Assembly: GCA_904501765.1 (NCBI GenBank)
Contig: CAJGCM010000001.1
Span: 7,257-71,256, forward strand
Direction of reading: 5' to 3'
DNA length: 64,000 nucleotides
DNA from: an uncultured Clostridia bacterium
GTDB taxonomy: Bacteria > Bacillota > Clostridia > Oscillospirales > CAG-272
How positions within the stretch are numbered: the first letter of the stretch is position 1; each line of letters opens with the position of its first letter. The notes under the pieces are model-generated. The model was given only the letters and a program-made list of their open reading frames with translations, ran no database searches and was not told where the DNA came from. Position numbers and translations under genes: made by a program. Below are positions 12,969 through 33,350 of this stretch, one piece after another.

Positions 12969-12970
12969 AT

Positions 12971-13184: not shown

Positions 13185-13195
13185 GATATCTCACT

Positions 13196-13226: not shown

Positions 13227-13228
13227 TA

Positions 13229-20686: not shown

Positions 20687-21646
20687 TTACAGGCTATAGA
20701 GAATATCTCCGTCGACATTAAACGTCAGCCATACAGCATTCTCCAGGCCAGCTGTGAATTTGCGGTTAGTAGCAACGTTCATGTTCTGAATACCAAAATC
20801 AACATAGCCATCACCACGTTCGCTATCGTAGACCCAGCCGACAGCCTGACCCATACGGCATTCGGGAAGACCCAATTCCTTTAGAACGTAATTCAGGAAT
20901 AAGCGTCCATCGGACTTGAGCTTCTCGTTCATCCAGTTCTGCTGCTGGACAAGGAAGAACTTATTCTTTTCATGATCAGGCATCCAGGCACTGGACGTAT
21001 CCTTACTGAACGCAAAGGTATACGGACTCATAGCGTCAGCGGGATTGCCGACTTCCACAGTCTTCTTAACGATAGACTCAGTGCCGTCCTCATTCACCAC
21101 AACCTCTTCCACTTCCTGAGCCTTGATGTCGTACAGAAGCTCCTTGTCAAGCTGCTCGCTAAAGCGCTCTACCACACGACCACGATACTTCTTGAAACCA
21201 GTGTCAACCGCGGTGTAAGCAGCTGCCAGAGCCAGATTACGCTTACGAGTGATGTTGTGACCAGCCAGGATACAAGCGATAGACGTAGCGCCAACCAAAA
21301 CAGCGGGGCCGTACAGTTTAGCCATCTTCAGCGCAGTCTGACCGTATACGATAGTCAAATCCTTCTGTGCGTCCTTAGCGGTATAAGGGACCATACCGAC
21401 CTGACCATTATCAAGATAACCCTTAACAGCGCCAGTTTCGGCGCCCTCGTGAATAATCTCAACCTTCTTCTTAGTGTCCTCAAGGACAAAATCAACCTTA
21501 GTGGTTGCCTTACAAGCCATAACGGCGCTGACGACAGTACCGACAACGCCCGTTACAACAAGGATTTCAGGACTGTGCTTCTTAAGCTGGAAACCAGCCT
21601 TATGAAAAGCACGAGACGCAGTAGTAGCCAATTCGTTGAATTTCAT
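20687..21646 (-). CDS. Membrane-associated protein, paralog family A (copy 1)
   Basis: Shares KHSPEIL-TM-AxKAT..., GATSIACI and LGL...G..GW blocks with 23198..23983 and 24241..25011. Possibly the family I recall as DUF6353 (unverified). Confidence 0.65.
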   Translation of the reverse strand: MKFNELATTASRAFHKAGFQLKKHSPEILVVTGVVGTVVSAVMACKATTKVDFVLEDTKKKVEIIHEGAETGAVKGYLDNGQVGMVPYTAKDAQKDLTIVYGQTALKMAKLYGPAVLVGATSIACILAGHNITRKRNLALAAAYTAVDTGFKKYRGRVVERFSEQLDKELLYDIKAQEVEEVVVNEDGTESIVKKTVEVGNPADAMSPYTFAFSKDTSSAWMPDHEKNKFFLVQQQNWMNEKLKSDGRLFLNYVLKELGLPECRMGQAVGWVYDSERGDGYVDFGIQNMNVATNRKFTAGLENAVWLTFNVDGDILYSL

Positions 21647-21648
21647 AA

Positions 21649-21981
21649 TCAATCATTCTCCTTTTTAGTAGTATTTTCTACGTGCCAAATCAGATGCTCC
21701 AGGTACCACTTAGCCTTGTTCAAATCCTGAAGGCCGTTCTTACCCTTCCATCGACAAATATATTTAATGACCTGGGCCGTATCGACAGCTTCGATGCCGG
21801 AGAGGCCCTCTGTGAAGGCCTCCATAACATCGATGACCTCAAGACCGGCCTTGGACTGATAGTGAGCCGGGTGGTTCACCATATCGGGCTCGGTATCGAT
21901 CAGACCGCTGACGGTGTGCTCATAGTCATCACCATAGCAAGGCTCGTGACACCCCGCATAATCGTTATATACGACGTTCAT
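21649..21981 (-). CDS. DUF3310-like phage protein
   Basis: VNHPAHYQSKAGLEVIDVMEAF ... VIKYICRWKGKNGLQDLNKAKWYLEHL matches the remembered DUF3310 pattern (NHPxHY ... KY..R...K....DL.KA.wYL). Confidence 0.65.
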   Translation of the reverse strand: MNVVYNDYAGCHEPCYGDDYEHTVSGLIDTEPDMVNHPAHYQSKAGLEVIDVMEAFTEGLSGIEAVDTAQVIKYICRWKGKNGLQDLNKAKWYLEHLIWHVENTTKKEND

Positions 21982-22835: not shown

Positions 22836-22871
22836 AAAAAGAAAAGAGAGAACACCCTGTTAAAGGTGCTC
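22836..22871 (-). terminator. Intrinsic terminator of the 67-aa cassette
   Basis: Minus strand: GAGCACC-tttaacag-GGTGTTC followed by TCTCTTTTCTTTTT. Confidence 0.55.
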
Positions 22872-22920
22872 CCTCTTTGGTTACCTAGTAAACTCTGCTA
22901 GGAGTTACTCGGTTGGCAGA

Positions 22921-23124
22921 TCATGCCTCGTCTTCCACGAACTCGTACTCAGACTCCTGCTGTGCCTTCTTAGCCTTGATAGCAGCGATGCCTCTCTTAA
23001 CCAGCCCGATGCCTGCAAATACTGCGGCAGTCACGCCAGCGCCGATAGCGATAGCTGCACCAGTGCTCAGATTAACACCAGCGATCTCGTCCTTAACCTC
23101 GTTCACGTTCATGATTTCTTCCAT
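22921..23124 (-). CDS. Small membrane protein (67 aa)
   Basis: TM GAAIAIGAGVTAAVFAGIGLV, acidic tail. AGGAGGAAA upstream. Confidence 0.55.
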   Translation of the reverse strand: MEEIMNVNEVKDEIAGVNLSTGAAIAIGAGVTAAVFAGIGLVKRGIAAIKAKKAQQESEYEFVEDEA

Positions 23125-23164
23125 TTTTGTTTCCTCCTAAATTAAATAAAGTTTTACGGGTAAT

Positions 23165-23196
23165 CCCCATTACAGTATGTGTATTTTTCGCGAATT
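23165..23196 (-). promoter_or_regulatory. Conserved promoter-like motif, variant -10
   Basis: Minus strand: AATTCGCGAAAAATACACATACTGTAATGGGG. Confidence 0.45.
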
Positions 23197-23197
23197 A

Positions 23198-23983
23198 TTA
23201 AAGTAGATTATACTCGGGCGGATAGTCGAAGCTGAGTACGATACACGGCCGACCCTCGTATTCGGTACCCTCTTCCGCCATCTGAGCGGACGGGTGAATC
23301 TCGATGAGATGCTTACACTTCCAACCAAGACTATCACCGGTCATAGTGGGGGATAGGCCAATTTCACTATAGAAATCGTTGAGGGATACGCCAGCATCAA
23401 ACGGATCAGTGATTATAGCCTTATTGAGATTGTTGACAGCTCGATTAATTTTCTCCAGATCGTTATAGAAATACCGAGCGGATAGCGGGTCGTAGAACAA
23501 CGTTTGTCCTTTGCCTGTTACGAACACCTCGGTATGCGAGACAGGGTTCTCTTTGACCTGTTTCTCAGCAACTTTATCGCGGACCGTTCTCTCTTTCTTT
23601 TCGCCGATAGTCTCGACAACCTTCTCCTTATACTCGCTGAACGCAGTTTCGGACAGCTTATAAGCCGTTGCTAACGCTGCATGACGACGAGCACTTACGG
23701 ATGCAGAACCGATCAGACATGCAATCGAGGTCGCACCAGTAATCGCTGCTGGTACATAACACTTCCATGTTGCCTTAACCGTCTCGATAGGAGTCAGACT
23801 GTCAGTTTCGAGTTCGTTCTTCTTATCGTCGATCAGCATCAGTGCTTTTGGAGTGGCTTTGACGGCGAGTACCGTAGTCGTGATCATACCCGTGATTCCC
23901 ATTCCCATAAGAATTTCAGGTGCGTGCTTCGACAACGATAATCGCACGTCATGTGTGAATTTTGCTAGGGCTTGCTTGCTCAT
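23198..23983 (-). CDS. Membrane-associated protein, paralog family A (copy 2)
   Basis: KHAPEILMGMGITGMITTTVLAVKATPKAL ... GATSIACLIG ... IGLSPTMTGDSLGW. Confidence 0.65.
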   Translation of the reverse strand: MSKQALAKFTHDVRLSLSKHAPEILMGMGITGMITTTVLAVKATPKALMLIDDKKNELETDSLTPIETVKATWKCYVPAAITGATSIACLIGSASVSARRHAALATAYKLSETAFSEYKEKVVETIGEKKERTVRDKVAEKQVKENPVSHTEVFVTGKGQTLFYDPLSARYFYNDLEKINRAVNNLNKAIITDPFDAGVSLNDFYSEIGLSPTMTGDSLGWKCKHLIEIHPSAQMAEEGTEYEGRPCIVLSFDYPPEYNLL

Positions 23984-24023
23984 GTGTTATCACGTCTCCT
24001 TTCAAAAATATGCTCTGGGTTAG

Positions 24024-24050
24024 AAACAAAAGAGTCCATTAGGACTCCTT
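24024..24050 (-). terminator. Intrinsic terminator
   Basis: Minus strand: GGAGTCC-taat-GGACTC-TTTTGTTTCT. Confidence 0.6.
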
Positions 24051-24194
24051 TGCTTGGTCGGCAAGTGCCTTATTCACTGCCTCGTTGATCTTAGCCTCTT
24101 GCGTCTTCTGACTTGCGATACCGGACACCACAGTCCCTGCGATGCCAAGCACCGTTCCAGCGATGCTGAGTACTTTAACAATAGGGAATTTCAT
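24039..24194 (-). CDS. Small membrane protein (51 aa)
   Basis: Own translation: MKFPIVKVLSIAGTVLGIAGTVVSGIASQKTQEAKINEAVNKALADQAKES. Promoter motif and GGAAGGAAGG directly upstream. Confidence 0.5.
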   Translation of the reverse strand: MKFPIVKVLSIAGTVLGIAGTVVSGIASQKTQEAKINEAVNKALADQAKES

Positions 24195-24203
24195 AATATT
24201 TCA

Positions 24204-24239
24204 CCTTCCTTCCATAATACTCTCTGTGTTTCTCGCGAA
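24204..24239 (-). promoter_or_regulatory. Conserved promoter-like motif (near-consensus copy)
   Basis: Minus strand: TTCGCGAGAAACACAGAGAGTATTATGGAAGGAAGG. Confidence 0.65.
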
Positions 24240-24240
24240 C

Positions 24241-25011
24241 TTAACACCAATCTTCGAAGTCTGGGTATGGATCTTGACCGAATGAGATTATGATACATTC
24301 TAGTCCATCGTCCATAACCACCTTCTCATGGTGAAAATCGATCCATGACTGCCAGTAGGCGTCCATATTAGCGCATGTATTCCATCCGAAATCGTTACCG
24401 TGATCAAGCGGCTCTAGTCCAAGCAGACTATACCACTCGTTCAGATACACACCGTCGTCCATCATTAGCGTTCGATTTACCTCATACTCTGCTTTTTGGA
24501 CATCGAATGGTCTGGCTTCGAAGTACTGATCGGAATAGTAGTCGTAATAAAGTCGTTTACCGTCTTCCGGTTCAGCCGAACTCTCGGGGTATTCCTCGTC
24601 GTACTTATCCTTCGCTATGCCAGCTCTGATTTGCATGCCTGCTTCGCTACCGTATAGTTCCTCAACCTTCTTGCGATAGTCCTTATAGCCGCTATCGAGT
24701 AGTGCGTAGGCGCTCATTAAGGATGCTTGACTGCGCTGGTTAAGAACATTAGCTCCGAATATACAGGCTAGTGTAGATACGCCTAGGATAACTGTAGGGA
24801 CGTACGCTGGACCTGCTATTTTGACTGTTTCGAGCGTAGTTAATTCATCGCCTTTTTCCTCTTTCGCTTGATCCAATAATGCTAATGCTTTTGGTGTGGC
24901 CTTAACCGCAGTCACCGTAGTCGCAACTACTCCGGCAGCCCCCACACACGTTAATATAGTTGACGAGTTCCGCTTTAAAAATAATTGTGACTTTGCTAAT
25001 AGACTGTTCAT
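24241..25011 (-). CDS. Membrane-associated protein, paralog family A (copy 3)
   Basis: Trimmed to ATG 25011. TILTCVGAAGVVATTVTAVKATPKALALL ... VSTLACIFG ... LGLEPLDHGNDFGW. Confidence 0.65.
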   Translation of the reverse strand: MNSLLAKSQLFLKRNSSTILTCVGAAGVVATTVTAVKATPKALALLDQAKEEKGDELTTLETVKIAGPAYVPTVILGVSTLACIFGANVLNQRSQASLMSAYALLDSGYKDYRKKVEELYGSEAGMQIRAGIAKDKYDEEYPESSAEPEDGKRLYYDYYSDQYFEARPFDVQKAEYEVNRTLMMDDGVYLNEWYSLLGLEPLDHGNDFGWNTCANMDAYWQSWIDFHHEKVVMDDGLECIIISFGQDPYPDFEDWC

Positions 25012-25100
25012 TTCCATCCTCACCTTTCGGGGTTTGTAAAAAGCAAAGAGAAGTTGTCAGTTTTTACACCGACAAACAACAGATTTTACTCTGAAGCTTA

Positions 25101-25136
25101 CCTTCTCATAATAGCCGTTGTATTTCTCGCGAATCG
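25101..25136 (-). promoter_or_regulatory. Conserved promoter-like motif
   Basis: Minus strand: CGATTCGCGAGAAATACAACGGCTATTATGAGAAGG. About 90 nt of leader precede ATG 25011. Confidence 0.6.
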
Positions 25137-25165
25137 AAAAAGAAGGAGTCCGTGTTAGGGACTCA
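25134..25165 (-). terminator. Intrinsic terminator
   Basis: Minus strand: GAGTCCC-taacac-GGACTCC-TTCTTTTTCG. Confidence 0.6.
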
Positions 25166-25366
25166 TTCAGCCTTTTTCCTCGCTCTCCTTCTCTTTCTCC
25201 ATTTACGGAGCTTCGCGATCAATCGGACAATAGCCCACATGATCAATATGCATACTAACAAATCGCCGAATATCACGAGCATGCTTCCACCGCCTATAAT
25301 TAGAACGATAGCCAACGCTATCGCGACCACTAGCAATAAGAATAGTAGTATTGCAAAACTAATCAT
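25163..25366 (-). CDS. Small membrane protein (67 aa) with basic tail
   Basis: Two hydrophobic stretches, C-terminus KLRKWRKRRRARKKAE. Confidence 0.55.
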   Translation of the reverse strand: MISFAILLFLLLVVAIALAIVLIIGGGSMLVIFGDLLVCILIMWAIVRLIAKLRKWRKRRRARKKAE

Positions 25367-25380
25367 ACCGTTTCCTCCTT

Positions 25381-25413
25381 TCTCTCATAAAAGGAAGTGT
25401 TATCACCGCGAAA
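25381..25413 (-). promoter_or_regulatory. Conserved promoter-like motif
   Basis: Minus strand: TTTCGCGGTGATAACACTTCCTTTTATGAGAGA. Confidence 0.55.
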
Positions 25414-25425
25414 GGTGGGACTATG

Positions 25426-25785
25426 TTATATGTCCCGTCTGTCAAAGCAGGTTTCCCAGCGTTCTTTAGGTAGAGGTTTCATCTTCAAAGCCCACATTAT
25501 TTGGCGGATTGTGATCGTCGGGAACACGCCGTCCTTACACTCGCCAGAGCGATCATCGAACAACGTCTTGAATTTTGGATGTAGATATAACGAATCGGTG
25601 AGCCACGGATCGATCTCACTCCACCAGGTTTGTTTTGTGTCTGAATCAAACCGCTGCTGTATAACTGCCAGTCCTCGACTACCCATTTTGAATAATGTAC
25701 AGCTATCATAGGCTGGGTGGTCGCAAATATGTATGTCTCCGTACATAGACGAATACAGAGCAGGTTTTTCATAGTGATATCTCAT
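25426..25785 (-). CDS. Hypothetical protein (119 aa)
   Basis: ORF with AGGAGGTGAG upstream. No motif recognised. Confidence 0.55.
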   Translation of the reverse strand: MRYHYEKPALYSSMYGDIHICDHPAYDSCTLFKMGSRGLAVIQQRFDSDTKQTWWSEIDPWLTDSLYLHPKFKTLFDDRSGECKDGVFPTITIRQIMWALKMKPLPKERWETCFDRRDI

Positions 25786-25800
25786 AACTCACCTCCTGAC

Positions 25801-25828
25801 TAAAAGTGAAGAGTCCCCGTAGGAACTC
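25801..25828 (-). terminator. Weak terminator-like hairpin
   Basis: Imperfect GAGT(C)CC / GG(A)ACTC hairpin followed on the minus strand by TTCACTTTTA. Confidence 0.35.
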
Positions 25829-25843
25829 CCCATCTTGTAGATT

Positions 25844-26056
25844 TTAGACGATTTTACTCACGTACAATATGTAGTTCACCATCAATATCGGCCACAATAC
25901 CGTCCAAGCTACGATACCGAGCAGCCATGACCACGAGTGTGTCAGGAAATCCTTCCAGTCAAATCTCGCGCCCTTGGCGACAATCAGTACGATCCCGGCG
26001 ATGTTCATAACCAACCACGCGGTAATACCAATAAGAATATATGTAAATAAAAACAT
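25844..26056 (-). CDS. Small membrane protein (70 aa)
   Basis: Trimmed to ATG 26056 (MFLFTYILIGITAWLVMNIAGIVLIVA...) after AAAGGAGA. 2-3 TM helices. Confidence 0.55.
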   Translation of the reverse strand: MFLFTYILIGITAWLVMNIAGIVLIVAKGARFDWKDFLTHSWSWLLGIVAWTVLWPILMVNYILYVSKIV

Positions 26057-26066
26057 ATTGTCATCT

Positions 26067-26098
26067 CCTTTCATAAAGGAGGATGTTTTAAACGCGAG
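26067..26098 (-). promoter_or_regulatory. Conserved promoter-like motif
   Basis: Minus strand: CTCGCGTTTAAAACATCCTCCTTTATGAAAGG. Confidence 0.5.
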
Positions 26099-26127
26099 AT
26101 AAAAGAAACAGCCCTTGCGGACTGCCC

Positions 26128-26307
26128 TCACAGATACTCTTCCATTTCTTCTGCGATTTCTTGTGCTACTTCAGCACCCATCTTTGCGTAATTCTTGATG
26201 AATTCCTTAGACATATACTGTTTCATCATGATTTTCATCATAATATACCCAGCTAGTGTCTGTGCAACCACTAAAACTACTGCAAATACTACAGCTTCTA
26301 ATAACAT
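26128..26307 (-). CDS. Small membrane protein (59 aa)
   Basis: Own translation: MLLEAVVFAVVLVVAQTLAGYIMMKIMMKQYMSKEFIKNYAKMGAEVAQEIAEEMEEYL. GGAGA 8 nt upstream. Confidence 0.5.
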   Translation of the reverse strand: MLLEAVVFAVVLVVAQTLAGYIMMKIMMKQYMSKEFIKNYAKMGAEVAQEIAEEMEEYL

Positions 26308-26335
26308 TTCAATCGTCTCCTTATGGAATGTATTT

Positions 26336-26370
26336 TCTCTCCATAATAGAAGATGTTTCTGACACGAGAA
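26336..26370 (-). promoter_or_regulatory. Conserved promoter-like motif
   Basis: Minus strand: TTCTCGTGTCAGAAACATCTTCTATTATGGAGAGA. Confidence 0.6.
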
Positions 26371-26410
26371 AAAGTAAAGGAGGCGCCGTAGCGTCCCCGT
26401 TACTTGGAAC

Positions 26411-26485
26411 TTAATCCTTCTTTACACTACTGAAGACTAGTGCACAACCGCATACTATCAGTATAACTCCGATTAGTAATACCAT
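26411..26485 (-). CDS. Candidate 24-aa hydrophobic micropeptide
   Basis: Own translation: MVLLIGVILIVCGCALVFSSVKKD. GGGGAGGAAA upstream. Has its own promoter motif and a downstream hairpin. Confidence 0.35.
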   Translation of the reverse strand: MVLLIGVILIVCGCALVFSSVKKD

Positions 26486-26515
26486 ATTACATTTCCTCCC
26501 CTTGTAAATAAATAT

Positions 26516-26548
26516 CATTCCATAATAGGAGGGGTATTTGTCGCGATT
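26516..26548 (-). promoter_or_regulatory. Conserved promoter-like motif
   Basis: Minus strand: AATCGCGACAAATACCCCTCCTATTATGGAATG. Confidence 0.6.
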
Positions 26549-26617
26549 ACCTTCCTTTGCTCAGATCCAAAAGGAAGAGGCTGTGTTTCCACAACCCCTT
26601 GCCTCGGTCCGTCGTTC

Positions 26618-27001
26618 TCACTTCTTGTGGAACAATCTCTGAACAAAGTTTCTTCCAGATTGCGTAGTGATCGTGCCGGTTTCTTCAAACTTAAGTGAAA
26701 CCTTGGTACCCCAAATCGTAACTACCAACGGCAATACGACTCCGGCCGCGCCGATGATGTTTTTCACGATCCGATCTCTTCGTTCCTCGCGCATCTGCTG
26801 TACTTTCAAAGTCTGCTCGCTTTCTCTAGCAGCAGCCTTATCCTTACAGTCGATGTCGACTTTCTCGATCTCGATTGCTTTATCCATCAGCTTGGCCAAA
26901 CCATCAACTGTGGTGCGATACTTTTCGGAGCCAGGCTCCATCGTACTCAGTTTGTCAAACTCCGATTCGATCTCAGTGTGCAATAAAGCTTCAATGCTCA
27001 T
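26618..27001 (-). CDS. Hypothetical coiled-coil protein with C-terminal TM (127 aa)
   Basis: Charged helical N-terminal part, then NIIGAAGVVLPLVVTIWG. Confidence 0.6.
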   Translation of the reverse strand: MSIEALLHTEIESEFDKLSTMEPGSEKYRTTVDGLAKLMDKAIEIEKVDIDCKDKAAARESEQTLKVQQMREERRDRIVKNIIGAAGVVLPLVVTIWGTKVSLKFEETGTITTQSGRNFVQRLFHKK

Positions 27002-27033
27002 CTCAATCGTCTCCTTTCAGATATTTCGAACTT

Positions 27034-27070
27034 CACGTTCCATAATAGCGACTGTTATTTGTGCGAATCC
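27034..27070 (-). promoter_or_regulatory. Conserved promoter-like motif
   Basis: Minus strand: GGATTCGCACAAATAACAGTCGCTATTATGGAACGTG. Confidence 0.6.
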
Positions 27071-27294
27071 TGGCGAATAGTTTTAATGATAAAAGCCGCC
27101 TTCGACATCGATGCGAGCTCTTCCATCGGTACTGTTGGCACTAAATACGGATACTGGCTTCCATCGTGATCGCTCGTGATAATATAGATAGTACCTTTAG
27201 CTCCGCTTTGTTTGCCAGCTTTACCTAGCAGATAGCCTAGCACGAACGCTATAGTAACTGCTATGAATGCTATTACCATAAATCCCGCTTCCAT
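27055..27294 (-). CDS. Small membrane-anchored protein (79 aa)
   Basis: N-terminal TM FMVIAFIAVTIAFVLGYLLG. GGAGATCAAAATGG start context. A ~130-nt leader without the canonical motif. Confidence 0.55.
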   Translation of the reverse strand: MEAGFMVIAFIAVTIAFVLGYLLGKAGKQSGAKGTIYIITSDHDGSQYPYLVPTVPMEELASMSKAAFIIKTIRQDSHK

Positions 27295-27499
27295 TTTGAT
27301 CTCCTTTCAAATTGTTTTTCTAAAATTCTCCCCCGGGATTTTTTTTCACATTACAAATTTATCACCCTTTCTGGTAACCTACGTACGGGTCTTTTAAGTT
27401 AGGTTAAAAATATGTATTCTAGATTAGTTTCGTTCGAACCTAAAAAGAAAAGAGTCTGAGATTACTCCCAGACCCTCATCTTTGTGTGACAATTAATAA

Positions 27500-27607
27500 T
27501 TAACCATTCTCCATCATCTCGATAGCCTCTTTACGAGTCATCAGCATGCCATTACACCAGACCATCTCGTTCATGTCGATAGTCTCATTAGCGTTAGCGT
27601 GATCCAT
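27500..27607 (-). CDS. Candidate 35-aa peptide
   Basis: Own translation: MDHANANETIDMNEMVWCNGMLMTRKEAIEMMENG. GGAGG 7 nt upstream. Promoter motif at 27646-27678. Confidence 0.4.
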   Translation of the reverse strand: MDHANANETIDMNEMVWCNGMLMTRKEAIEMMENG

Positions 27608-27645
27608 AATCGTACCTCCTTTTGATTTTGTTTTTAATATATTAT

Positions 27646-27678
27646 CTTGTCATAAAACAAGTTGTTTTTCGCGAATTT
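27646..27678 (-). promoter_or_regulatory. Conserved promoter-like motif
   Basis: Minus strand: AAATTCGCGAAAAACAACTTGTTTTATGACAAG. Confidence 0.5.
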
Positions 27679-27907
27679 ACTCTGCGTCCTTCTTAGCAAG
27701 GTATAAGTAATACTCGAGATCGGTAACAGCATCTTGGAGTTGTTGAGCAGTTCGCTTTGTATCTCCTATCGCTTCCTCAAGACTAACTACATCGAATACA
27801 TTCACGTCATTATATATCTGCTCTGTATCGTCTTTTAGTAAGTTTACTAAACCTCGCGACAGTCTAGCTTTACCTCGCATCACCATTTTTAATTCTTGTA
27901 TATCCAT
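27677..27907 (-). CDS. Hypothetical helical protein (76 aa)
   Basis: GGAGGGCGTCAAAATGG start context. No motif recognised. Confidence 0.55.
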   Translation of the reverse strand: MDIQELKMVMRGKARLSRGLVNLLKDDTEQIYNDVNVFDVVSLEEAIGDTKRTAQQLQDAVTDLEYYLYLAKKDAE

Positions 27908-27981
27908 TTTGACGCCCTCCTATATACTGAAAAGAGAAGAGGTTCTGTTCAACCTCCGCTCTTGTCTTTGTCATTAGTCGA

Positions 27982-28041
27982 TTAGACAATGTATGCAATC
28001 GCTGCTGCAATACCCATTGCTGCTGCAATAATTCCAAACAT
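27982..28041 (-). CDS. Candidate 19-aa hydrophobic micropeptide
   Basis: Own translation: MFGIIAAAMGIAAAIAYIV. GGAGA 6 nt upstream. Promoter motif at 28066-28099. Hairpin AGAGGTTC/GAACCTC downstream. Confidence 0.3.
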   Translation of the reverse strand: MFGIIAAAMGIAAAIAYIV

Positions 28042-28065
28042 AGCCGATCTCCTTTCAAAACTAAT

Positions 28066-28099
28066 ATTTCTCATAATAGCGATTGTTATTTTCGCGCGG
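28066..28099 (-). promoter_or_regulatory. Conserved promoter-like motif
   Basis: Minus strand: CCGCGCGAAAATAACAATCGCTATTATGAGAAAT. Confidence 0.6.
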
Positions 28100-28505
28100 T
28101 GTTTAGTAACCAAAAGAACTTCCTATAGCGATCATAGTACATGTCTTTTCCACACGGAATGTTTAATCTAGTTTTTAAGTATGTGTAAGAGAGATTCTCC
28201 GTAACTGCTTTTAATATGTATTGCCACAGATAGTTGTCGGCTTCCCTAGCGACTTTCTCGACCATTTCGATGCGTTCTGTAAGCTGCGCTTTAGCAATGG
28301 CTCGTCTAGCTGTAGGATCTCCAGGAAGATTACCAGACGATATACTCTCGAACGATGATGTCGATATATTCGGACTATCGAGTTCCATATAGGTCTTCTT
28401 CCATTTGGGGTATTGCAAACAGAAGTGTTTTAGTTCATAGTGACGATGCTTATCGATATGATACTTGTTTTTAATAGAAAGCTCTGGTCTAATAACCGTA
28501 GCCAT
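28086..28505 (-). CDS. Putative sigma-like / late-transcription regulator (RinA/ArpU or Tn916-Orf7-like class)
   Basis: 139 aa. RHYELKHFCLQYPKWKK and the C-terminal LSYTYLKTRLNIPCGKDMYYDRYRKFFWLL resemble small phage and conjugative-transposon sigma-region-4-like activators (from memory, unverified). Confidence 0.4.
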   Translation of the reverse strand: MATVIRPELSIKNKYHIDKHRHYELKHFCLQYPKWKKTYMELDSPNISTSSFESISSGNLPGDPTARRAIAKAQLTERIEMVEKVAREADNYLWQYILKAVTENLSYTYLKTRLNIPCGKDMYYDRYRKFFWLLNTARK

Positions 28506-28511
28506 TTTGAC

Positions 28512-28649
28512 TCACTCTCCTTTAATGTAATCCTCATAAACTTCTATATATTGTTTAATCTGTGAAACCCTATTCTTTAATTTAGCGATTTCTTTTTCTT
28601 GCATTAGAATCAACCCCACTAACTCTGCTATTATCTCGTCTTTGGTCAT
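28512..28649 (-). CDS. Candidate 45-aa coiled-coil peptide
   Basis: Own translation: MTKDEIIAELVGLILMQEKEIAKLKNRVSQIKQYIEVYEDYIKGE. Overlaps the 3' end of 28582..28776 in another frame. Confidence 0.35.
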   Translation of the reverse strand: MTKDEIIAELVGLILMQEKEIAKLKNRVSQIKQYIEVYEDYIKGE

Positions 28650-28776
28650 TACCAATCAGTCCCTTCTTCGCTAATATACTAACAAAACGCTCTGTGGCAT
28701 TGCGTATGTTTTCTCTCTGTTCCTCAGTTGGTTCTGTTATATATACTATCGCGTTCTCATAAACGTATTCACGCAT
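28582..28776 (-). CDS. Small hypothetical protein (64 aa), first gene of the leftward operon at the switch
   Basis: MREYVYENAIVYITEPTEEQRENIRNATERF... It is divergent from the repressor gene. No HTH seen. Confidence 0.5.
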   Translation of the reverse strand: MREYVYENAIVYITEPTEEQRENIRNATERFVSILAKKGLIGNDQRRDNSRVSGVDSNARKRNR

Positions 28777-28816
28777 TCTTTCTGCCCCTTTTTATTATGC
28801 TAAAAACGTTATTTAA

Positions 28817-28831
28817 AACGCTAAAAGCGTT
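28817..28831. promoter_or_regulatory. Operator-like perfect palindrome in the divergent promoter region
   Basis: AACGCT-AAA-AGCGTT. Further half-sites AACGCT (28871-28876) and AGCGTT (28901-28906), plus AACGTT at 28805-28810. Confidence 0.5.
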
Positions 28832-28946
28832 AATCTAGATTAAATATTACTATCCTAGAATAGCTTTGTCAACGCTTTGTGGGTTTTCTTTTGCATTTTT
28901 AGCGTTTTTAGTGTAAGTTATTAGATACAGTAAAGGGGGTGATGAG

Positions 28947-29309
28947 TTGGTAAACGGCAACAAAAATATTTTGTCTAAGAATCTAAAAAAGTATATATCT
29001 AAAAGCGGAAAGGATCGAGGTAAGATCGCAGAGGAGCTGGGTCTATCCTATTCCACACTGACTGATTGGATTAACGGTAACAAATATCCGCGGATAAATA
29101 ACGTTGAGAAACTGGCGACATATTTCGGAGTTTCCAAGTCAGATTTGATTGAAGATTTTGAGGAAATAAAAAAAGACAATGACAGACTGGTCGCCATCAT
29201 TGTCAAGCTACGAACAAATAAAGATTTAGTAAATGTCGTAGAAAAATTATCTAGTCTTGATAAAACAAAGTTGGAGCAGTTAAGCCGCTTCTTGGATGCT
29301 ATTATCTAG
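28947..29309 (+). CDS. XRE/CI-like HTH repressor
   Basis: HTH_3 pattern LSKNLKKYISKSGKDRGKIAEELGLSYSTLTDWINGNKYPRINNVEKLATYFGVSKSDL. TTG start after AAAGGGGG. Plus strand, divergent from the phage genes. Confidence 0.8.
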   Translation: MVNGNKNILSKNLKKYISKSGKDRGKIAEELGLSYSTLTDWINGNKYPRINNVEKLATYFGVSKSDLIEDFEEIKKDNDRLVAIIVKLRTNKDLVNVVEKLSSLDKTKLEQLSRFLDAII

Positions 29310-29498
29310 AAGTTGAGATATTAGGTCGAGAAGCGCTAAGTCGTTACACAGATTCATTTGTTCAATGATTTGAGCGATGTACATTTCTTTCAATAGAAAC
29401 TCTCCTTGTCGTCCGGGGCAGAACGAATGTTCTAAAGTATTATAAAAGAAGAAATTGTCAGACACAACAAGAAATACTTACCAAAAGGGGAAATTAAC

Positions 29499-31136
29499 AT
29501 GTATAAGGAATATCCAACATTTTATAATTTCGAAACCTTAGAATATGACAGGAAATCTCGTTTCGATGATCCGTACCTATCGGTTGACGAGGTTTTAGAG
29601 AAACACACTAGAATGATAGAAGAGTATGCTAAGAAATATCTAAGCGGACCCATACCAGAGCATCATAAGTATAAGGAGGTCGGAAGTGGCGAGTCAATCG
29701 ACGATCGCCCGGAAATGCTCCGTTTACTCAAAGCAATAGAGAATCCGAAAATAAAAGCAATAATAGTAGTCGACGTACAGCGTTTGAGCCGTGGAGACTT
29801 GGAGGATGCCGGTAGACTTATAAAACTTCTTCGTTATACTAATACGTTCGTAATCACACCATATAAAACATATGATCTACGAGACGAGTTCGACCGTGAC
29901 GCCTTTGAACGTGAGCTGAAACGTGGTAATGAATACTTGAACTATTTCAAGAAGATATCACTGCGCGGTAAGCTCGACAGCGTCCGTGAAGGAAACTATA
30001 TAGGGTCCGTTCCCCCATACGGATTCAATAGAATAATAAAAGAGAATGGCAAGAAAATATGTCATACCCTCGAAGAACGAAAGGATCAGGCGGATGTAGT
30101 TCGATTAATATTCGAATGGTATTGTAATGGCGATATTGGGGCAACTGCGATATGCAGAAAACTAGAAAGTATGCATATCAAGACGCCAGGTGGAAAGGAC
30201 TGCTGGAAGTCCGGTATGATCTTCTCCATCTTAGAAAATATACACTATATAGGATGCGTTAGATGGGATTGGCGTAAGACCATAAAGATAATCAAAGACC
30301 AGGAAATTAAGGAGATGCGCCCAAAAGCCAAAATCGGGGAGTATCTGATTTTTAATGGCAAACATGATGGTATAGTTTCGGAGGAGCTGTTTAATCGAGC
30401 CAAGGAGGTACGGGGTAACAGACATCGAGCACGGACAGACACCACCTTGAAAAACCCTCTTAGCGGAGTGTTGATTTGTAAAGCATGCGGAGGGAAAATG
30501 GGGTATAACACCTATAGAAGAAAGGGGGTCGAGTACGCTAAACCTCGAGTAATGTGCCACAACCAGGTTCATTGTAAAACAGGCTCGGCTATATACGAAG
30601 AGGTACTGGAACGCGTCTGCGACTCCCTTAGTGAAATTATAGACGATTTTGAAGTGCGTGTCGAGAATCAAAAGGACGACTCGAGTAAGCTGCACGCAGA
30701 TTTAATAGAGCGCCTGGAGAAAAAACTTGCTGATTTGGAAATTAAGGAGAAGCTTCAATGGGAGGCCAAACACCATCCCGATCCTGATGAACGTATGCCG
30801 ACACATATATTCAAGGATCTAAACGAGAAACTGTTAAAAGAGAGGGCTGAAATAAACGAAGCTTTGTGCGACGCTAAGGATGCGATGCCAGAGCCTATAG
30901 ACTATCGCAAACGAGCCGTTACGTTTAGAGAGACATTAGAAATAATAAAAGACCCTGACATAGACGCGTCTATAAAAAATATGCATTTGAAAGATATTAT
31001 AGAGAAGATCGAGTATACTAGACCGCCTAATGTGAAGATTACAAATGAGAATAAAGGTGAGCTAGGATATGCCAAACTTGGAAGAAAAAACATGTTTCAT
31101 AGCGAACCGTTCGAAATAACAATATTCATCAAGTAA
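29499..31136 (+). CDS. int: Large serine recombinase (integrase)
   Basis: Resolvase catalytic region YDRKSRFDD ... IIVVDVQRLSRGD. Recombinase domain with PPYGF. Zinc ribbon CKACGGKM ... C ... C. C-terminal coiled coil. Confidence 0.9.
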   Translation: MYKEYPTFYNFETLEYDRKSRFDDPYLSVDEVLEKHTRMIEEYAKKYLSGPIPEHHKYKEVGSGESIDDRPEMLRLLKAIENPKIKAIIVVDVQRLSRGDLEDAGRLIKLLRYTNTFVITPYKTYDLRDEFDRDAFERELKRGNEYLNYFKKISLRGKLDSVREGNYIGSVPPYGFNRIIKENGKKICHTLEERKDQADVVRLIFEWYCNGDIGATAICRKLESMHIKTPGGKDCWKSGMIFSILENIHYIGCVRWDWRKTIKIIKDQEIKEMRPKAKIGEYLIFNGKHDGIVSEELFNRAKEVRGNRHRARTDTTLKNPLSGVLICKACGGKMGYNTYRRKGVEYAKPRVMCHNQVHCKTGSAIYEEVLERVCDSLSEIIDDFEVRVENQKDDSSKLHADLIERLEKKLADLEIKEKLQWEAKHHPDPDERMPTHIFKDLNEKLLKERAEINEALCDAKDAMPEPIDYRKRAVTFRETLEIIKDPDIDASIKNMHLKDIIEKIEYTRPPNVKITNENKGELGYAKLGRKNMFHSEPFEITIFIK

Positions 31137-31140
31137 CGAG

Positions 31141-31170
31141 AAAGCCCGCCACAATGGGCTTTTTCTTTTT
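31141..31170 (+). terminator. Intrinsic terminator of the integrase gene
   Basis: AAAGCCC-gccacaat-GGGCTTT followed by TTCTTTTTC. Confidence 0.7.
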
Positions 31171-31367
31171 CGGGCACATGAATGGGCGGATTCTTCCGGG
31201 TCTACATGTGACCGAAAGTCATGTAACTCTATTTTGACTGGTTGAAAAGAAGAGACCATGCGGCTCGTCCAATTAACCATTAAGTCACTCACGTACCTCG
31301 AGTCGGGTTCCCAACCCCTTCAAGTGGCGACACATGTTCTCAGAGTATACCGTCCCTTCATATACTC

Positions 31368-31403
31368 GTCTCTCCATAATACAACGTGTTTATCACGCGA
31401 CAA
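31368..31403 (-). promoter_or_regulatory. Conserved promoter-like motif with no ORF behind it, convergent with int
   Basis: Minus strand: TTGTCGCGTGATAAACACGTTGTATTATGGAGAGAC. The longest ORF downstream starting after it is 13 codons. Confidence 0.6.
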
Positions 31404-31431
31404 AAAGAAAAGAGCCCTTGATCAGGACTCA
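31402..31431 (-). terminator. Intrinsic terminator
   Basis: Minus strand: GAGTCC-tgatcaa-GGGCTC-TTTTCTTTTT. Confidence 0.6.
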
Positions 31432-31652
31432 TCCAGTTGGTCAATAGCTTCGTAGATCCCTTCGGCAAAAGTCGTAGATACCATTTCTAATATCTCCTCA
31501 TGGGATGGCGGATCTGATTCGAGTCCATAGATGATCATTATCGCTTGTAAAACCGCGACATAGTCTCTTGCTACTCGACGTAGATCTTTTTCCATCCCTG
31601 CTGGGAGTTTCTTCTTTACTGGAAACATATAAACTTTAGCCATTTTGACCAT
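31422..31652 (-). CDS. Hypothetical protein (73-76 aa)
   Basis: MVKMAKVYMFPVKKKLPAGMEKDL... The start may be 31643 (TCAAAATGG context). Confidence 0.55.
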   Translation of the reverse strand: MVKMAKVYMFPVKKKLPAGMEKDLRRVARDYVAVLQAIMIIYGLESDPPSHEEILEMVSTTFAEGIYEAIDQLDES

Positions 31653-31666
31653 TCCTTTCCACTATT

Positions 31667-31700
31667 TTCCTTCCATAAAAGGGGCTGTTTCTGGGGCGAG
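31667..31700 (-). promoter_or_regulatory. Conserved promoter-like motif
   Basis: Minus strand: CTCGCCCCAGAAACAGCCCCTTTTATGGAAGGAA. Confidence 0.55.
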
Positions 31701-31744
31701 TCGCCTTAGTCTCAGCGGAACTTCGGAGAAAAAAGAAAAGAAGG

Positions 31745-31824
31745 TGGGTAGTGTGGGATTCGAACCCACGACGTTGAGGCTGTCCTCTTACTCTTCCATT
31801 AGAGCTAACCGTCTTAACTATCCC
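31745..31824 (-). ncRNA. tRNA-like element (perfect T-arm, no canonical anticodon arm), candidate small RNA or degenerate tRNA
   Basis: Minus strand: GGGATAGT ... GCTC-taatggaa-GAGT ... GAGG-acag-CCTC ... GTGGG-TTCGAAT-CCCAC-ACTACCC-A, then CCTTCTTTTCTTTTTTC. The acceptor pairs only with a bulged A. I could not find a 5-bp/7-nt anticodon stem-loop. Confidence 0.4.
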
Positions 31825-31860
31825 AAGACCACTCCGATACTTTAAGTACGGGAATGGTGC

Positions 31861-31894
31861 TTCCTTCCATAATAGGACTTGTTTCTGTGACGAA
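31861..31894 (-). promoter_or_regulatory. Conserved promoter-like motif driving the tRNA-like element
   Basis: Minus strand: TTCGTCACAGAAACAAGTCCTATTATGGAAGGAA. Confidence 0.6.
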
Positions 31895-31918
31895 AAAAAT
31901 AAAAAGGAAAAGCATCAG

Positions 31919-32059
31919 CTACTCCGCATATACCGTCACTGTAGTTTCCTTAATATGATCAATTTCTTTAACTTCATCTTTCATAAATTGGTTTACAAAA
32001 CCGTATATATCCATAGCCAATACCATGCCTGCTAATGTAACTACCAAAAACTTTTTCAT
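31919..32059 (-). CDS. Small secreted or membrane peptide (46 aa)
   Basis: Trimmed to ATG 32059 (MKKFLVVTLAGMVLAMDIYGFVNQF...) after GGAGGGA. Confidence 0.45.
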   Translation of the reverse strand: MKKFLVVTLAGMVLAMDIYGFVNQFMKDEVKEIDHIKETTVTVYAE

Positions 32060-32086
32060 GATAAATCCCTCCAAAGTTTGTAATAG

Positions 32087-32119
32087 TTTCTCATAAGAGG
32101 GCATGTTCCTGGTGCGATC
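32087..32119 (-). promoter_or_regulatory. Conserved promoter-like motif, weaker copy
   Basis: Minus strand: GATCGCACCAGGAACATGCCCTCTTATGAGAAA. Confidence 0.45.
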
Positions 32120-32243
32120 TACTCTATTTTGACACAATCTTAGTATCTATGAAGCTTCGTAAATAAAACGAAAAGGGCCTGGAGGAGCAATGAACTCTCC
32201 AAGCAGCGGTATCACTTAAGATACTACATTCGTGTCTCACTAC

Positions 32244-32278
32244 TTCCTTCTCATAATACAATATGTTTCTCACGCGGA
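32244..32278 (-). promoter_or_regulatory. Conserved promoter-like motif with no credible ORF behind it
   Basis: Minus strand: TCCGCGTGAGAAACATATTGTATTATGAGAAGGAA. Roughly 70-90 nt follow, ending in a short hairpin and CCCTTTTCGTTTTATTT. Confidence 0.6.
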
Positions 32279-32337
32279 CTCAGGGCATATTAATCGATAA
32301 AACGAAAAGGCCCAGCATTTAAGCCGGACCTACTCCG

Positions 32338-32640
32338 TTAAAGAGTCTTAATAGTTGCGAGTTTGTCACTAGCAAACATTTCTCCTTGTACGATCTCGAT
32401 GACCGCTCGGTAATAATCGCTTCCAGCATCGCGTTTCATTGCTGCTACACATGCACGTTTATCGCTGGCAAACATACCGGTGTTCATAATCGCCCGCACG
32501 GCGTCGTAATATCCTACTGTGCGGCAACTATTCTCACTTACATACGTCACCTTCGTAACGCGCGGTAGCGATAGAAATGCTCCGACTAGCGCAATTTTAC
32601 CAATAGTCCCGAATACACGTTTAACTGTTTCGTTGTTCAT
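32338..32640 (-). CDS. Hypothetical protein (100 aa) with internal duplication
   Basis: N-terminal hydrophobic segment. Two copies of YY(D/R)AV..I....MFASDK(R/L)A. Confidence 0.55.
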   Translation of the reverse strand: MNNETVKRVFGTIGKIALVGAFLSLPRVTKVTYVSENSCRTVGYYDAVRAIMNTGMFASDKRACVAAMKRDAGSDYYRAVIEIVQGEMFASDKLATIKTL

Positions 32641-32663
32641 AATAACAACCTCCCAATAATATT

Positions 32664-32696
32664 CTCTTCCATAATAGACGTTGTTTGTGTGACGAC
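32664..32696 (-). promoter_or_regulatory. Conserved promoter-like motif
   Basis: Minus strand: GTCGTCACACAAACAACGTCTATTATGGAAGAG. Confidence 0.6.
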
Positions 32697-32720
32697 TGGT
32701 TTCGTTATCCTCGGTATCTC

Positions 32721-32753
32721 AAGAAGAAAAAGAAGAGTCCATGTATCGGACTC
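32721..32753 (-). terminator. Intrinsic terminator
   Basis: Minus strand: GAGTCC-gatacat-GGACTC-TTCTTTTTCTTCTT. Confidence 0.6.
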
Positions 32754-32756
32754 AAC

Positions 32757-32963
32757 CTAACCTTCGAAGAATAGGACTACGTCCACAGGGCTTTTAAACT
32801 CCTGTTTCTCGATAAATCCCTTAAATACTTCATACTTATCAGGTTCATTTTCCTCAATATACATGATCTCATCTAATAAACGTCCGTAAAACCCTTGAGA
32901 ATACGATAACATCTCAATTACTTCAACTACTTCTTCAATGTCATAGCCTTTCTTAACTTCCAT
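32757..32963 (-). CDS. Small acidic hypothetical protein (68 aa)
   Basis: MEVKKGYDIEEVVEVIEMLSYSQGFYGRLL... AAGGAGG upstream. Own promoter motif. Confidence 0.55.
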   Translation of the reverse strand: MEVKKGYDIEEVVEVIEMLSYSQGFYGRLLDEIMYIEENEPDKYEVFKGFIEKQEFKSPVDVVLFFEG

Positions 32964-32984
32964 GTTAAACGCCTCCTTATAGGT

Positions 32985-33020
32985 TTTCCTTCCATAATAG
33001 GGGCTGTTTCTGAGACGAAA
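32985..33020 (-). promoter_or_regulatory. Conserved promoter-like motif (near-consensus copy)
   Basis: Minus strand: TTTCGTCTCAGAAACAGCCCCTATTATGGAAGGAAA. Confidence 0.65.
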
Positions 33021-33035
33021 AGGATAAAGGGCATG

Positions 33036-33149
33036 TTAAGACCCCCTATCCTTACTCTTAATCGTTTTTATGAGTGTCACGATCCCAGTGAGCAATGCTC
33101 CGATTACACTAAATGCTACTCCAAGTATGCTCAAAACATATACTAACAA
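33036..33149 (-). CDS. Candidate 37-aa hydrophobic peptide (TTG start)
   Basis: Own translation: (M)LVYVLSILGVAFSVIGALLTGIVTLIKTIKSKDRGS. GAGGAGG 9 nt upstream of TTG 33149. Confidence 0.35.
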   Translation of the reverse strand: MLVYVLSILGVAFSVIGALLTGIVTLIKTIKSKDRGS

Positions 33150-33156
33150 AGTCGTT

Positions 33157-33193
33157 CACCTCCTCATAAAACGAGGTGTTTTGGATGCGAATT
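33157..33193 (-). promoter_or_regulatory. Conserved promoter-like motif
   Basis: Minus strand: AATTCGCATCCAAAACACCTCGTTTTATGAGGAGGTG. Confidence 0.5.
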
Positions 33194-33315
33194 CTGGATT
33201 ACCGTTCTCAGTCTCTGCGAGTCCTCAATTAGAAAAAAGAAAAGAGAATGCAGGTAGCGGCCCAACGGTACCGAACTCTACCAATCCGAATTTCTTCAGA
33301 TTCCGTATAATACAT

Positions 33316-33350
33316 TCTCTCTCCATAATACGGCATGTTTTTAATGCGTA
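33316..33350 (-). promoter_or_regulatory. Conserved promoter-like motif with only a 28-codon ORF behind it
   Basis: Minus strand: TACGCATTAAAAACATGCCGTATTATGGAGAGAGA. Downstream lies a GGTAG...CTACC hairpin followed by TGCATTCTCTTTTCTTTTTTC. Confidence 0.6.

Follow-up and report, generated by a model that had tools for sequence, protein, structure and literature searches.

The stretch analyzed here, 64,000 nucleotides (nt) from an uncultured Clostridia bacterium (contig CAJGCM010000001.1, positions 7,257 to 71,256; hereafter the window), carries a temperate siphovirus with a tape-measure protein and a serine integrase. Nearly all genes lie on the minus strand, and read along that strand they pass from packaging, head, and tail genes through an array interval to the replication genes. 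Positions below are those of the window, and features are on the minus strand unless stated otherwise. The interval holds 19 copies of a short, promoter-like motif between 23165 and 33350, on either side of a lysogeny module with genes for a CI-like helix-turn-helix (HTH) repressor (28947 to 29309, plus strand) and a large serine recombinase, the integrase (29499 to 31136, plus strand). Nine copies lie between the lysis genes and the integrase gene, and ten follow a gene for a basic, all-helical protein of 139 amino acids (aa) of the family phrog_11237 (28086 to 28505), here called f139. This report concerns the motif, the small cassettes that it delimits, and f139 as the candidate specificity factor for it.

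The motif and its cassettes

A search with the core TATTATGGARG, one mismatch allowed, returned 20 occurrences, all on the minus strand, against 2.2 expected. A weight matrix iterated from 14 seeds converged on 21 minus-strand and no plus-strand sites and found none in shuffled sequence. These sites, 20 strong copies and one spacing variant, share the consensus TT-CGCG-N6-ACA-N5-T(A/T)TTAT-GRRR. The spacing of the blocks is gapless except at the variant (27657), where CGCG stands 2 nt nearer, and four copies (32999, 32676, 31874, and 26348) read CGTC or CGTG instead of CGCG. Two further sites lie downstream of the interval, at 13208 and 7941; the 30 kb of late genes contained none. A copy at 22836 and TGTTATGGAGG at 21819 were rejected as Shine-Dalgarno (SD) contexts without the CGCG and ACA blocks. 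The original prediction, which had been made from the letters of the window, counted 20 copies in the interval, a figure that falls to 19 without the copy at 22836, and its window total of 21, or 23 with outliers, becomes 21 with the outliers included. The fixed distance of 14 nt from TTCGCG to TATTAT, on which it laid weight, was confirmed apart from the variant, and so was the bias in orientation and position (21 minus-strand sites versus 0 on the plus strand); the motif is not an unoriented dispersed repeat.

We name each copy by the first base of its TATTAT box and give the extent of the motif in brackets. Upstream of the integrase gene, copy 33330 (33321 to 33350; 38.5/30.1 bits with the weight matrix) precedes a structured RNA without an open reading frame (ORF), whose fold runs from the G at 33324 (z, −4.05). 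Copy 33171 (33162 to 33191) is followed by a 37-aa transmembrane (TM) peptide (33036 to 33149) with its SD, GAGGAGG, directly after TTTTAT-G. The next two copies, 32999 (32990 to 33019) and 32676 (32667 to 32696), serve a 68-aa ORF (32757 to 32963; terminator at 32735 to 32753) and a 100-aa ORF (32338 to 32640; terminator at 32308 to 32331). Copy 32258 (32249 to 32278) precedes an ORF-less small RNA (sRNA) reading from 32252 to 32160, and the weaker copy 32098 (32089 to 32118; box TCTTAT) a 46-aa TM peptide (31919 to 32059). A tRNA-like RNA (31868 to 31735) follows copy 31874 (31865 to 31894), a 73-aa ORF (31422 to 31643; terminator at 31412 to 31430) follows copy 31680 (31671 to 31700), and an ORF-less RNA (31375 to 31245), directed towards the 3′ end of the integrase gene, follows copy 31381 (31372 to 31401).

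On the other side of the module, copy 28078 (28069 to 28098) is the first after f139 and has its CGCG in the last codons of that gene; it precedes a 19-aa TM peptide (27982 to 28041). The variant 27657 (27648 to 27677) stands before a 35-aa ORF (27500 to 27607), and copy 27047 (27038 to 27067) before a conserved 127-aa protein (26618 to 27001; phrog_15866). TM peptides of 24 aa (26411 to 26485) and 59 aa (26128 to 26307) follow copies 26527 (26518 to 26547) and 26348 (26339 to 26368). At copy 26078 (26069 to 26098), a 70-aa protein with two TM segments (25844 to 26056; SD 2 nt after the box) is followed by a conserved 119-aa ORF (25426 to 25785), and copy 25392 (25383 to 25412) precedes a 67-aa TM protein (25163 to 25366). 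Copy 25113 (25104 to 25133) is separated from the gene of a DUF6353 protein (24241 to 25017) by a 90-nt leader (25018 to 25107) with a terminator-like hairpin at 25054 to 25075; this leader may be an attenuator. A 51-aa TM peptide (24039 to 24194) and then a DUF6353 paralogue (23198 to 23983) lie behind copy 24219 (24210 to 24239), and the last copy of the interval, 23174 (23165 to 23194; box TGTAAT), precedes a 67-aa TM protein (22921 to 23124; terminator at 22843 to 22878). Of the two outlying copies, 13208 (13199 to 13228) stands before a 63-aa ORF (12993 to 13184) and 7941 (7932 to 7961) before a gene for a pentapeptide-repeat protein (7125 to 7835). The cassette at 13208 is flanked by two tRNA-Leu genes (anticodons TAA and TAG; 12891 to 13313), which were the sole matches to Rfam at the gathering threshold.

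The idea of mini-cassettes wrapped around the lysogeny module, each defined by an oriented promoter-like signal and some without an ORF, was thus borne out: four cassettes had no credible ORF. Start codons, which had been placed 10 to 25 nt from the motif, lie 9 to 44 nt after the box and at 90 to 100 nt for two genes. TM-like segments occur in 14 of the 21 ORFs. A clear hairpin with U-tract, described originally as the usual end of a cassette, closes roughly 11 of 19 and runs straight into the next TTCGCG; the GAGTCC/GGACTC stems attributed to these hairpins are present in several. Several terminators between 24032 and 32753 share a GAGTCC...GGACTC stem followed by TTCTTTTT; in this shared stem and TTCTTTTT tail the terminators look related to one another, as the promoter-like motifs do.

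Conservation in related phages and evidence for promoter function

A megablast search with the array against 50,697 phage records gave no match. Related loci were found through the f139 protein only and then scanned for the motif. The human-gut phage MT835485 (59% identity in f139) had 15 sites on the gene strand and none on the other, and Faecalibacterium phage FP_oengus (41% identity), in which the motif has a GACGCG flavor and is still present, had 12 sites above 6 bits (9 above 12 bits) and again none on the other strand. Together with 80 IMG/VR loci at 56 to 80% identity, these two make up 82 viral loci (L001 to L082; 41 to 80% identity) with 792 gene-strand sites and 1 on the opposite strand. 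A further 80 prophage loci in bacterial assemblies (50 to 69% identity) contributed 561 gene-strand sites and none on the other strand, for a total of 1,353 versus 1. Among 120 IMG/VR chunks found by the motif first, none had sites on both strands. The motif discovery in relatives that the original prediction had proposed thus returned oriented arrays on the gene strand. The assemblies belong mostly to Lachnospiraceae, Oscillospiraceae, Christensenellaceae, and Ruminococcus, and cultured hosts include Hungatella hathewayi, Enterocloster lavalensis, Cuneatibacter, and [Ruminococcus] torques. Several contigs with this Clostridia-type prophage also occur in metagenome-assembled genomes labeled Bacteroidales, Parabacteroides, Kiritimatiellae, or Muribaculum (L088 to L090, L094, L116, L156, and L162), which are probably misbinned phage contigs.

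The logo of 640 unique sites reads TT-CGCG-AAAWWW-ACA-NNNNC-T(A/T)TTAT-G-R-R-R. Conservation reaches 94 to 100% at CGC, at the C of ACA, and at T2, A4, T5, and G6 of the last block, and the intervening positions vary freely. Such conservation of the blocks alone across such diverged phages argues for selection on function and not for recent copying. A matrix from the 640 sites of other phages recovered 20 of the 21 window sites at >14 bits and had no match in 100 Markov simulations.

The surroundings of the 1,353 sites are those of promoters. An SD with a start codon lay within 60 nt downstream of 85% of sites (28% of random positions), a terminator-like hairpin within 90 nt upstream of 40% (6% of random positions), and only 8% fell inside a long ORF (60% of random positions). 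The median spacing between sites was 565 nt, and the median downstream ORF was 73 aa. Since the sites are intergenic, behind terminators, and before ribosome-binding sites, we consider it very probable, on these sequence contexts, that the motif copies are promoters.

Their sequence identifies them as something other than sigma-70-type promoters. Neither the logo nor the scan contained a TTGACA-like hexamer 16 to 18 bp upstream or a TG extension, and a scan with the sigma-70 consensus called 1 of the 21 copies (31381, 9 of 12 matches). At 17 bp upstream of the box the logo shows a T-tract only, and TTCGCG stands at 14 bp; such promoters have a near-invariant A at −11 and T at −7, but the would-be −11 position carries A in only 53% of sites, with T in 36%. 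The misfit to housekeeping-sigma geometry noted in the original prediction therefore stands, for want of a −35 hexamer at 16 to 18 bp and of a TG extension. Two other promoter types were considered here. Sigma-54 promoters have the consensus TGGCAC-N5-TTGCW with invariant GG and GC dinucleotides; if transcription started at the G after the box, the positions near −24 and −13 would have CGCG and ACA in place of GG and GC, and this assignment was rejected. The MotA box, (a/t)(a/t)(a/t)TGCTTtA, is absent from the logo, and it is in geometry alone that the motif resembles T4 middle promoters.

Three kinds of downstream feature crowd against the box. In a numbering that has the invariant G at position 6, the SD hexamer starts at motif position 9 to 10 in 210 of 918 sites and at 5 to 8 in 32 more, and for a third of family sites its first base falls at position 5 to 11. 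Of 29 unique cassettes of relatives, 28 have a tRNA or tRNA-like gene that starts at position 8 to 12, mostly at 8 to 9 (TATTATga|GAAACAGTTAGCTCA...). In all four ORF-less RNAs of the window, the closing helix begins exactly at the G after the box and ends just before the U-tract. The G-R-R-R run, moreover, stays pyrimidine-free even where the SD is distant, as would be expected of an initiating region; the downstream bases were not used in finding the sites. With SDs, tRNA 5′ ends, and sRNA helices 1 to 4 nt after the box, transcription probably starts at or next to the invariant G after T(A/T)TTAT. A sigma-70-type start at position 11 to 13 would lose the SD from the transcript. If +1 is the G, CGCG would occupy about −24 to −21, ACA −14 to −12, and T.TTAT −6 to −1, so that the three blocks would face the same side of the DNA at intervals of a helical turn. 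TATTAT is thus probably not the −10 hexamer of the original prediction, with starts 5 to 10 nt downstream. Its argument that a 14-nt spacer is shorter than the usual 16 to 18 nt becomes moot, and 5′ ends at 5 to 10 nt, whose absence was to count against promoters, would probably be missing even though the sites are promoters.

The four ORF-less cassettes have predicted structured RNAs, with fold z-scores of −2.5 to −4.1. In three of them (33226 to 33324, 32160 to 32252, and 31245 to 31375; predicted at 90 to 130 nt) the 5′ purine run pairs with a pyrimidine run before the U-tract, so that the whole RNA would form the terminator stem. For the family of the RNA that starts at 32252, 13 compensatory pairs in 6 homologues support the closing helix. 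The fourth (31735 to 31868) consists of a 5′ hairpin, itself conserved, and a cloverleaf with good D- and T-arms, an acceptor-like stem, and a 4-nt "anticodon" loop. It scores 25.9 bits against the Rfam tRNA model, under the gathering score of 29, with a fold z-score of −4.1, and it has homologues in L003, L004, L023, L024, and L089, with covariation across the six phages. Genes called as "tRNA-???" stand directly behind the motif in many relatives. This RNA may be a decoy or a regulatory tRNA mimic.

Comparison of about 280 loci separated the gene content of the array into two parts. A backbone in constant order, consisting of f139, the 127-aa protein, the 119-aa protein, two DUF6353 proteins, o93, o209, and a third DUF6353 protein, is conserved in 96 to 200 loci. 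The third DUF6353-type paralogue (phrog_2152; 20687 to 21652) closes the conserved early backbone as far as it was examined, and all three of these membrane paralogues (the others at 23198 to 23983 and 24241 to 25017) occur in nearly all relatives. A 76-aa ORF directly after f139 is common to 42 loci only. The tiny membrane peptides are ORFans, present in 0 to 15 loci. Homology blocks shared with the nearest relatives, L004 and L003, start 0 to 24 nt from a box and break off short of the next box. The cassettes are permuted as well: in L004 the tRNA-like cassette comes before the 68-aa cassette. Cassettes have been swapped between relatives at motif boundaries. The array mixes a conserved early backbone with ORFan membrane peptides and small RNAs, and it may or may not be the moron, host-takeover, or exclusion battery that had been suggested.

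The candidate factor f139 and its neighborhood

The original prediction had named the gene at 28086 to 28505 as a candidate regulator, and the relatives bear this out to the extent that one conserved gene always accompanies the motif and usually abuts its first copy. f139 is present in all 160 loci that were found through the protein and carry the motif, and in 123 of 143 loci no more than 300 nt separate its stop codon from the first box (no more than 60 nt in 59 loci). The protein matches phrog_11237 over its full length and nothing else. At 90% identity its family falls into 5,805 clusters, at 50% into 2,097, and it has no annotation; the library searched contained no literature on it, nor anything relevant on the motif strings or on transcription in Faecalibacterium/Oengus phages. 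f139 is kept both with a plain "integrase" annotation (FP_oengus) and with the large serine recombinase of the window, which argues against a role as recombination directionality factor.

With a shallow alignment, AlphaFold returned a model with a predicted local distance difference test (pLDDT) score of 65 and no fold matches; a deeper alignment raised the pLDDT to 83 for a basic, all-helical model whose C-terminal helices, in our reading, look HTH-like. Foldseek found no match of the latter model in the PDB. Against BFVD its matches were weak (E, 0.1 to 2), and many were named transcriptional activator, DUF1492, ECF sigma, or Sigma70 r4; weak PHROG matches were also to transcriptional regulators. 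Pfam gave no match at E ≤ 10 for 59 family members or at E ≤ 1 for 150 diverse members. By eye, f139 and RinA of phi11 have in common a basic last helix and, at the N terminus, the motif C-x-YP-x-(Y/W)-K. Membership in RinA/ArpU (PF05263/DUF1492) was rejected, with an hhalign probability of 0.3% against the phi11 RinA family and no Pfam match.

f139 is the only conserved gene between the lysogeny switch and the array. The repressor/cro switch region, as read in the sequence (28777 to 28946), has three operators of the type ACG(C/T)TTTTAGC(G/A)T flanking a sigma-A-type early promoter, TTGACA-17-TAATAT (28844 to 28872), which lies upstream of a 64-aa ORF, a 47-aa ORF, and f139. The operators, palindromes of the ACGCTTTTAGCGT type, bear no relation to the array motif. 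In the Hungatella hathewayi prophage, f139 likewise stands behind a canonical promoter, TTACTA-16-TAGAAT. The CTAGGATAG element of the switch region is also present in the Hungatella prophage L121.

Elsewhere in the window, the late genes encode the terminase (56996 to 58741), portal, protease, a 2,562-aa tape-measure protein, and tail proteins. The replication genes include an annealing protein, a helicase, and a DNA polymerase/primase (phrog_4210) in two parts (16152 to 18917 and 13929 to 15296), split by an HNH endonuclease gene (15280 to 16134). A NAMPT-family gene (556 to 2112) and a phosphoribosyl pyrophosphate (PRPP)-synthetase-like gene (2713 to 3516) form a phage NAD-salvage pair, and a gene at 5808 to 6746 encodes an SPFH/Band-7 protein. 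The large ORFs scanned were annotated as tape measure, tail, portal, protease, terminase, DNA polymerase/primase, helicase, or NAMPT, or had no function assigned; none was a phage RNA polymerase or matched any RNA-polymerase family. Pfam matches among the array proteins scanned were limited to HTH, recombinase, and DUF6353.

A proposed promoter class, its rivals, and known systems

In the reading that we favor, at a probability of roughly 60%, a very large family of temperate siphoviruses that infect gut Clostridia has an early or middle transcription class specific to its lineage, and the motif is the promoter of this class. Each copy, joined directly to the U-tract of the terminator before it, would form a compact terminator-promoter module, through which the small gene, tRNA, or sRNA that follows is transcribed as a unit of its own. 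With these same modules as joints, cassettes would be gained, lost, and reordered. Upon induction or infection, the sigma-A promoter of the switch would transcribe f139, from which no predicted terminator separates it in the sequence. f139 would then switch the host's RNA polymerase to the motif promoters, of which there are roughly 20, with transcription starting at or within 3 nt of the invariant G, as the three independent sequence constraints suggest. That f139 is the specificity factor that reads the motif seems to us possible, at slightly less than an even chance. A bolder version, which we regard as doubtful, is that f139 founds a new family of promoter-specificity subunits that open DNA at the start site through three duplex blocks on host core or holo polymerase, in thousands of prophages of gut Clostridia. 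Such a system would place a T7/phiKZ-like geometry, with the box abutting +1, on a cellular polymerase under a protein unrelated to sigma-70, sigma-54, MotA, and RinA, and its early program would consist of membrane peptides, tRNA-like RNAs, and sRNAs in the human and animal gut.

Several observations weigh against parts of this proposal. Since the SD, tRNA, and helix constraints set only a 3′ limit to the start, transcription could begin a few bases upstream of the G, and multisubunit RNA polymerases do not usually start 0 to 3 nt after an AT-rich box. No homology of f139 to sigma factors, to RinA/ArpU, or to any entry of Pfam, NCBIfam, or the PDB was detectable, and its longer homologues were likewise negative. 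What ties it to the motif, and makes it the best candidate, is association. Its gene was not seen in 83 of the 120 motif-first chunks, which are partial contigs; a 35%-identical homologue, L083, had no motif recognizable by weight matrix, gapped k-mers, or repeat search; and in about 18% of loci a motif copy lies 150 to 600 nt upstream of f139. Covariation of motif base −15 (G/A; CGCG versus CGCA) with f139 residues T108, M122, and R126 was dropped as evidence, because other early proteins, used as controls, track this base equally well or better, which marks it as a clade effect.

The proposal also has to be set against simpler readings of the same sites. They might be ordinary host sigma-A promoters, uniform because terminator-promoter modules spread by duplication or recombination and read without any phage factor. 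T.TTAT does resemble a −10 hexamer, the cassettes do recombine at the motif, and the sigma-70-dependent early promoters of T4 are conserved well past their hexamers (PMC2988021). This account nevertheless strikes us as unlikely. It has to do without a −35 hexamer at 16 to 18 bp, without a TG extension, and with an A at "−11" in only 53% of sites, although the same phages have canonical TTGACA/TAATAT promoters at their switch. A start 6 to 9 nt after the box would cut into SDs and tRNAs, and position-specific conservation at 41 to 60% protein identity, where nucleotide similarity is gone, points to selection and not to copying. Slightly less credible still is a host alternative sigma factor or global regulator, such as a sporulation sigma or Spo0A, that would tie the cassettes to host physiology. 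The hosts do span several families of spore-forming Clostridia, and copy 31874 reads TTCGTCA, matching a reversed 0A box (TTCGNCA). The family consensus TTCGCGA, though, mismatches that box at a key base, and every site seen belongs to a prophage array on the phage gene strand. To our knowledge, no consensus of sigma-H, -E, -F, -G, -K, -D, -B, -I, extracytoplasmic function (ECF) sigma factors, TcdR, or sigma-54 fits both sequence and spacing; these are general consensuses and not regulons of the hosts.

Two further readings would take the promoter function away from part or all of the motif, and we give each very little weight. The conserved upstream half might be an operator for a phage repressor, silencing or blocking transcription through the early region in lysogens, with the AT-rich box alone acting as promoter. 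Asymmetric, intergenic sites in a single orientation, about 20 per genome, resemble the stoperators of Cluster A mycobacteriophages. At the switch, however, the operators are palindromes of another sequence (ACGCTTTTAGCGT), the motif occurs in all loci whereas the repressor shows little conservation (8 loci), and the upstream blocks keep an invariant phase with RNA 5′ ends, as a promoter element would. Alternatively, the motif might act in RNA, as a processing or stabilizing site where an endonuclease cuts long read-through transcripts at UUAU|G. Functional RNAs do begin right after UUAUG, as cleavage would give. Strong terminators just before many copies would leave little read-through RNA to cut, however; neither a conserved RNA structure nor covariation within the motif is seen, and CGCG, ACA, and T.TTAT are spaced by one turn of the DNA helix.

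The motif is of immediate use as a one-line rule to locate the early transcription units, small peptides, tRNA-like RNAs, and sRNAs that gene callers miss in these phages. The start site, if it is where the sequences suggest, would represent a promoter geometry undescribed for a bacterial polymerase. Should f139 be the factor, the pair would offer a compact, orthogonal promoter and activator for Clostridia, which are genetically poorly tractable. Its family is found in prophages of the cultured gut Clostridia Hungatella hathewayi, Enterocloster lavalensis, and [Ruminococcus] torques and in Faecalibacterium phage FP_oengus. The array also extends the idea of regulatory modules as recombination joints from T4-like to temperate Gram-positive phages.

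That idea comes from the promoter early stem-loop (PeSL) elements of T4-like phages, composite terminator-promoter modules that flank variable genes and have recombination breakpoints at the module (PMC2839356, PMC4122927). The array is like them in its terminator-plus-promoter modules around small, variable, mostly ORFan genes of hyperplastic regions and in its breakpoints and permutations at the modules (PMC2839356, PMC4122927). It shares with them the fusion of stem-loop terminator and promoter with breakpoints, and it differs from them in having no T4-type sigma-70 promoter and no myovirus setting. PeSLs belong to lytic myoviruses of Gram-negative hosts and use sigma-70 early promoters, whereas the array belongs to temperate siphoviruses of Clostridia. 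Its promoter is noncanonical, has a dedicated gene linked to it, and keeps its sequence far better between distant relatives.

In regulatory logic the nearest parallel is the T4 middle class, a set of roughly 60 promoters that depend on an early activator and have their element about 12 bp away from an AT-rich box (PMC2988021). Other phage sigma or activator cascades follow a similar logic. Both the T4 system and the array have dozens of promoters without a −35 hexamer, an AT-rich box preceded at 12 to 14 bp by a phage-specific element, and an early activator from the phage, which here is a proposed one, in the place of MotA-AsiA (PMC2988021). The array motif departs from T4 in a sequence unrelated to the MotA box (TGCTTtA), in the extra ACA block, and in a putative start that adjoins the box instead of lying 7 nt downstream; Pfam detected no MotA or AsiA homologue among the array proteins scanned. 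The late activators RinA, ArpU, and LtrC (PF05263, DUF1492) are, at about 140 aa, similar in size to f139, which has weak BFVD matches to DUF1492. Unlike f139, RinA-type genes precede the terminase gene and control one late operon and not about 20 early promoters.

The apparent start geometry recalls the promoters of phage RNA polymerases, such as TATA-G in T7, TATG with G as +1 for the nonvirion RNA polymerase (nvRNAP) of phiKZ, and AACA-N6-T-A/G in AR9 late promoters (PMC5312081). As in these, an AT-rich box abuts a G and purines, the motif is uniform genome-wide, and an AACA block lies upstream as in AR9 (PMC5312081). The AACA spacing, however, is off by 4 nt, no phage polymerase was found, and temperate phages must begin with host polymerase on induction; an AR9/phiKZ-type promoter was rejected on the different spacing and the absence of a phage polymerase among the scanned ORFs (PMC5312081). 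By analogy, then, the array would combine a PeSL-like architecture, a T4-middle-like regulatory logic, and a phage-polymerase-like start geometry while having the defining features of none of them. As a kind of system, a phage-private promoter regulon in terminator-promoter cassettes is known; neither this motif with its geometry nor the protein family associated with it is.

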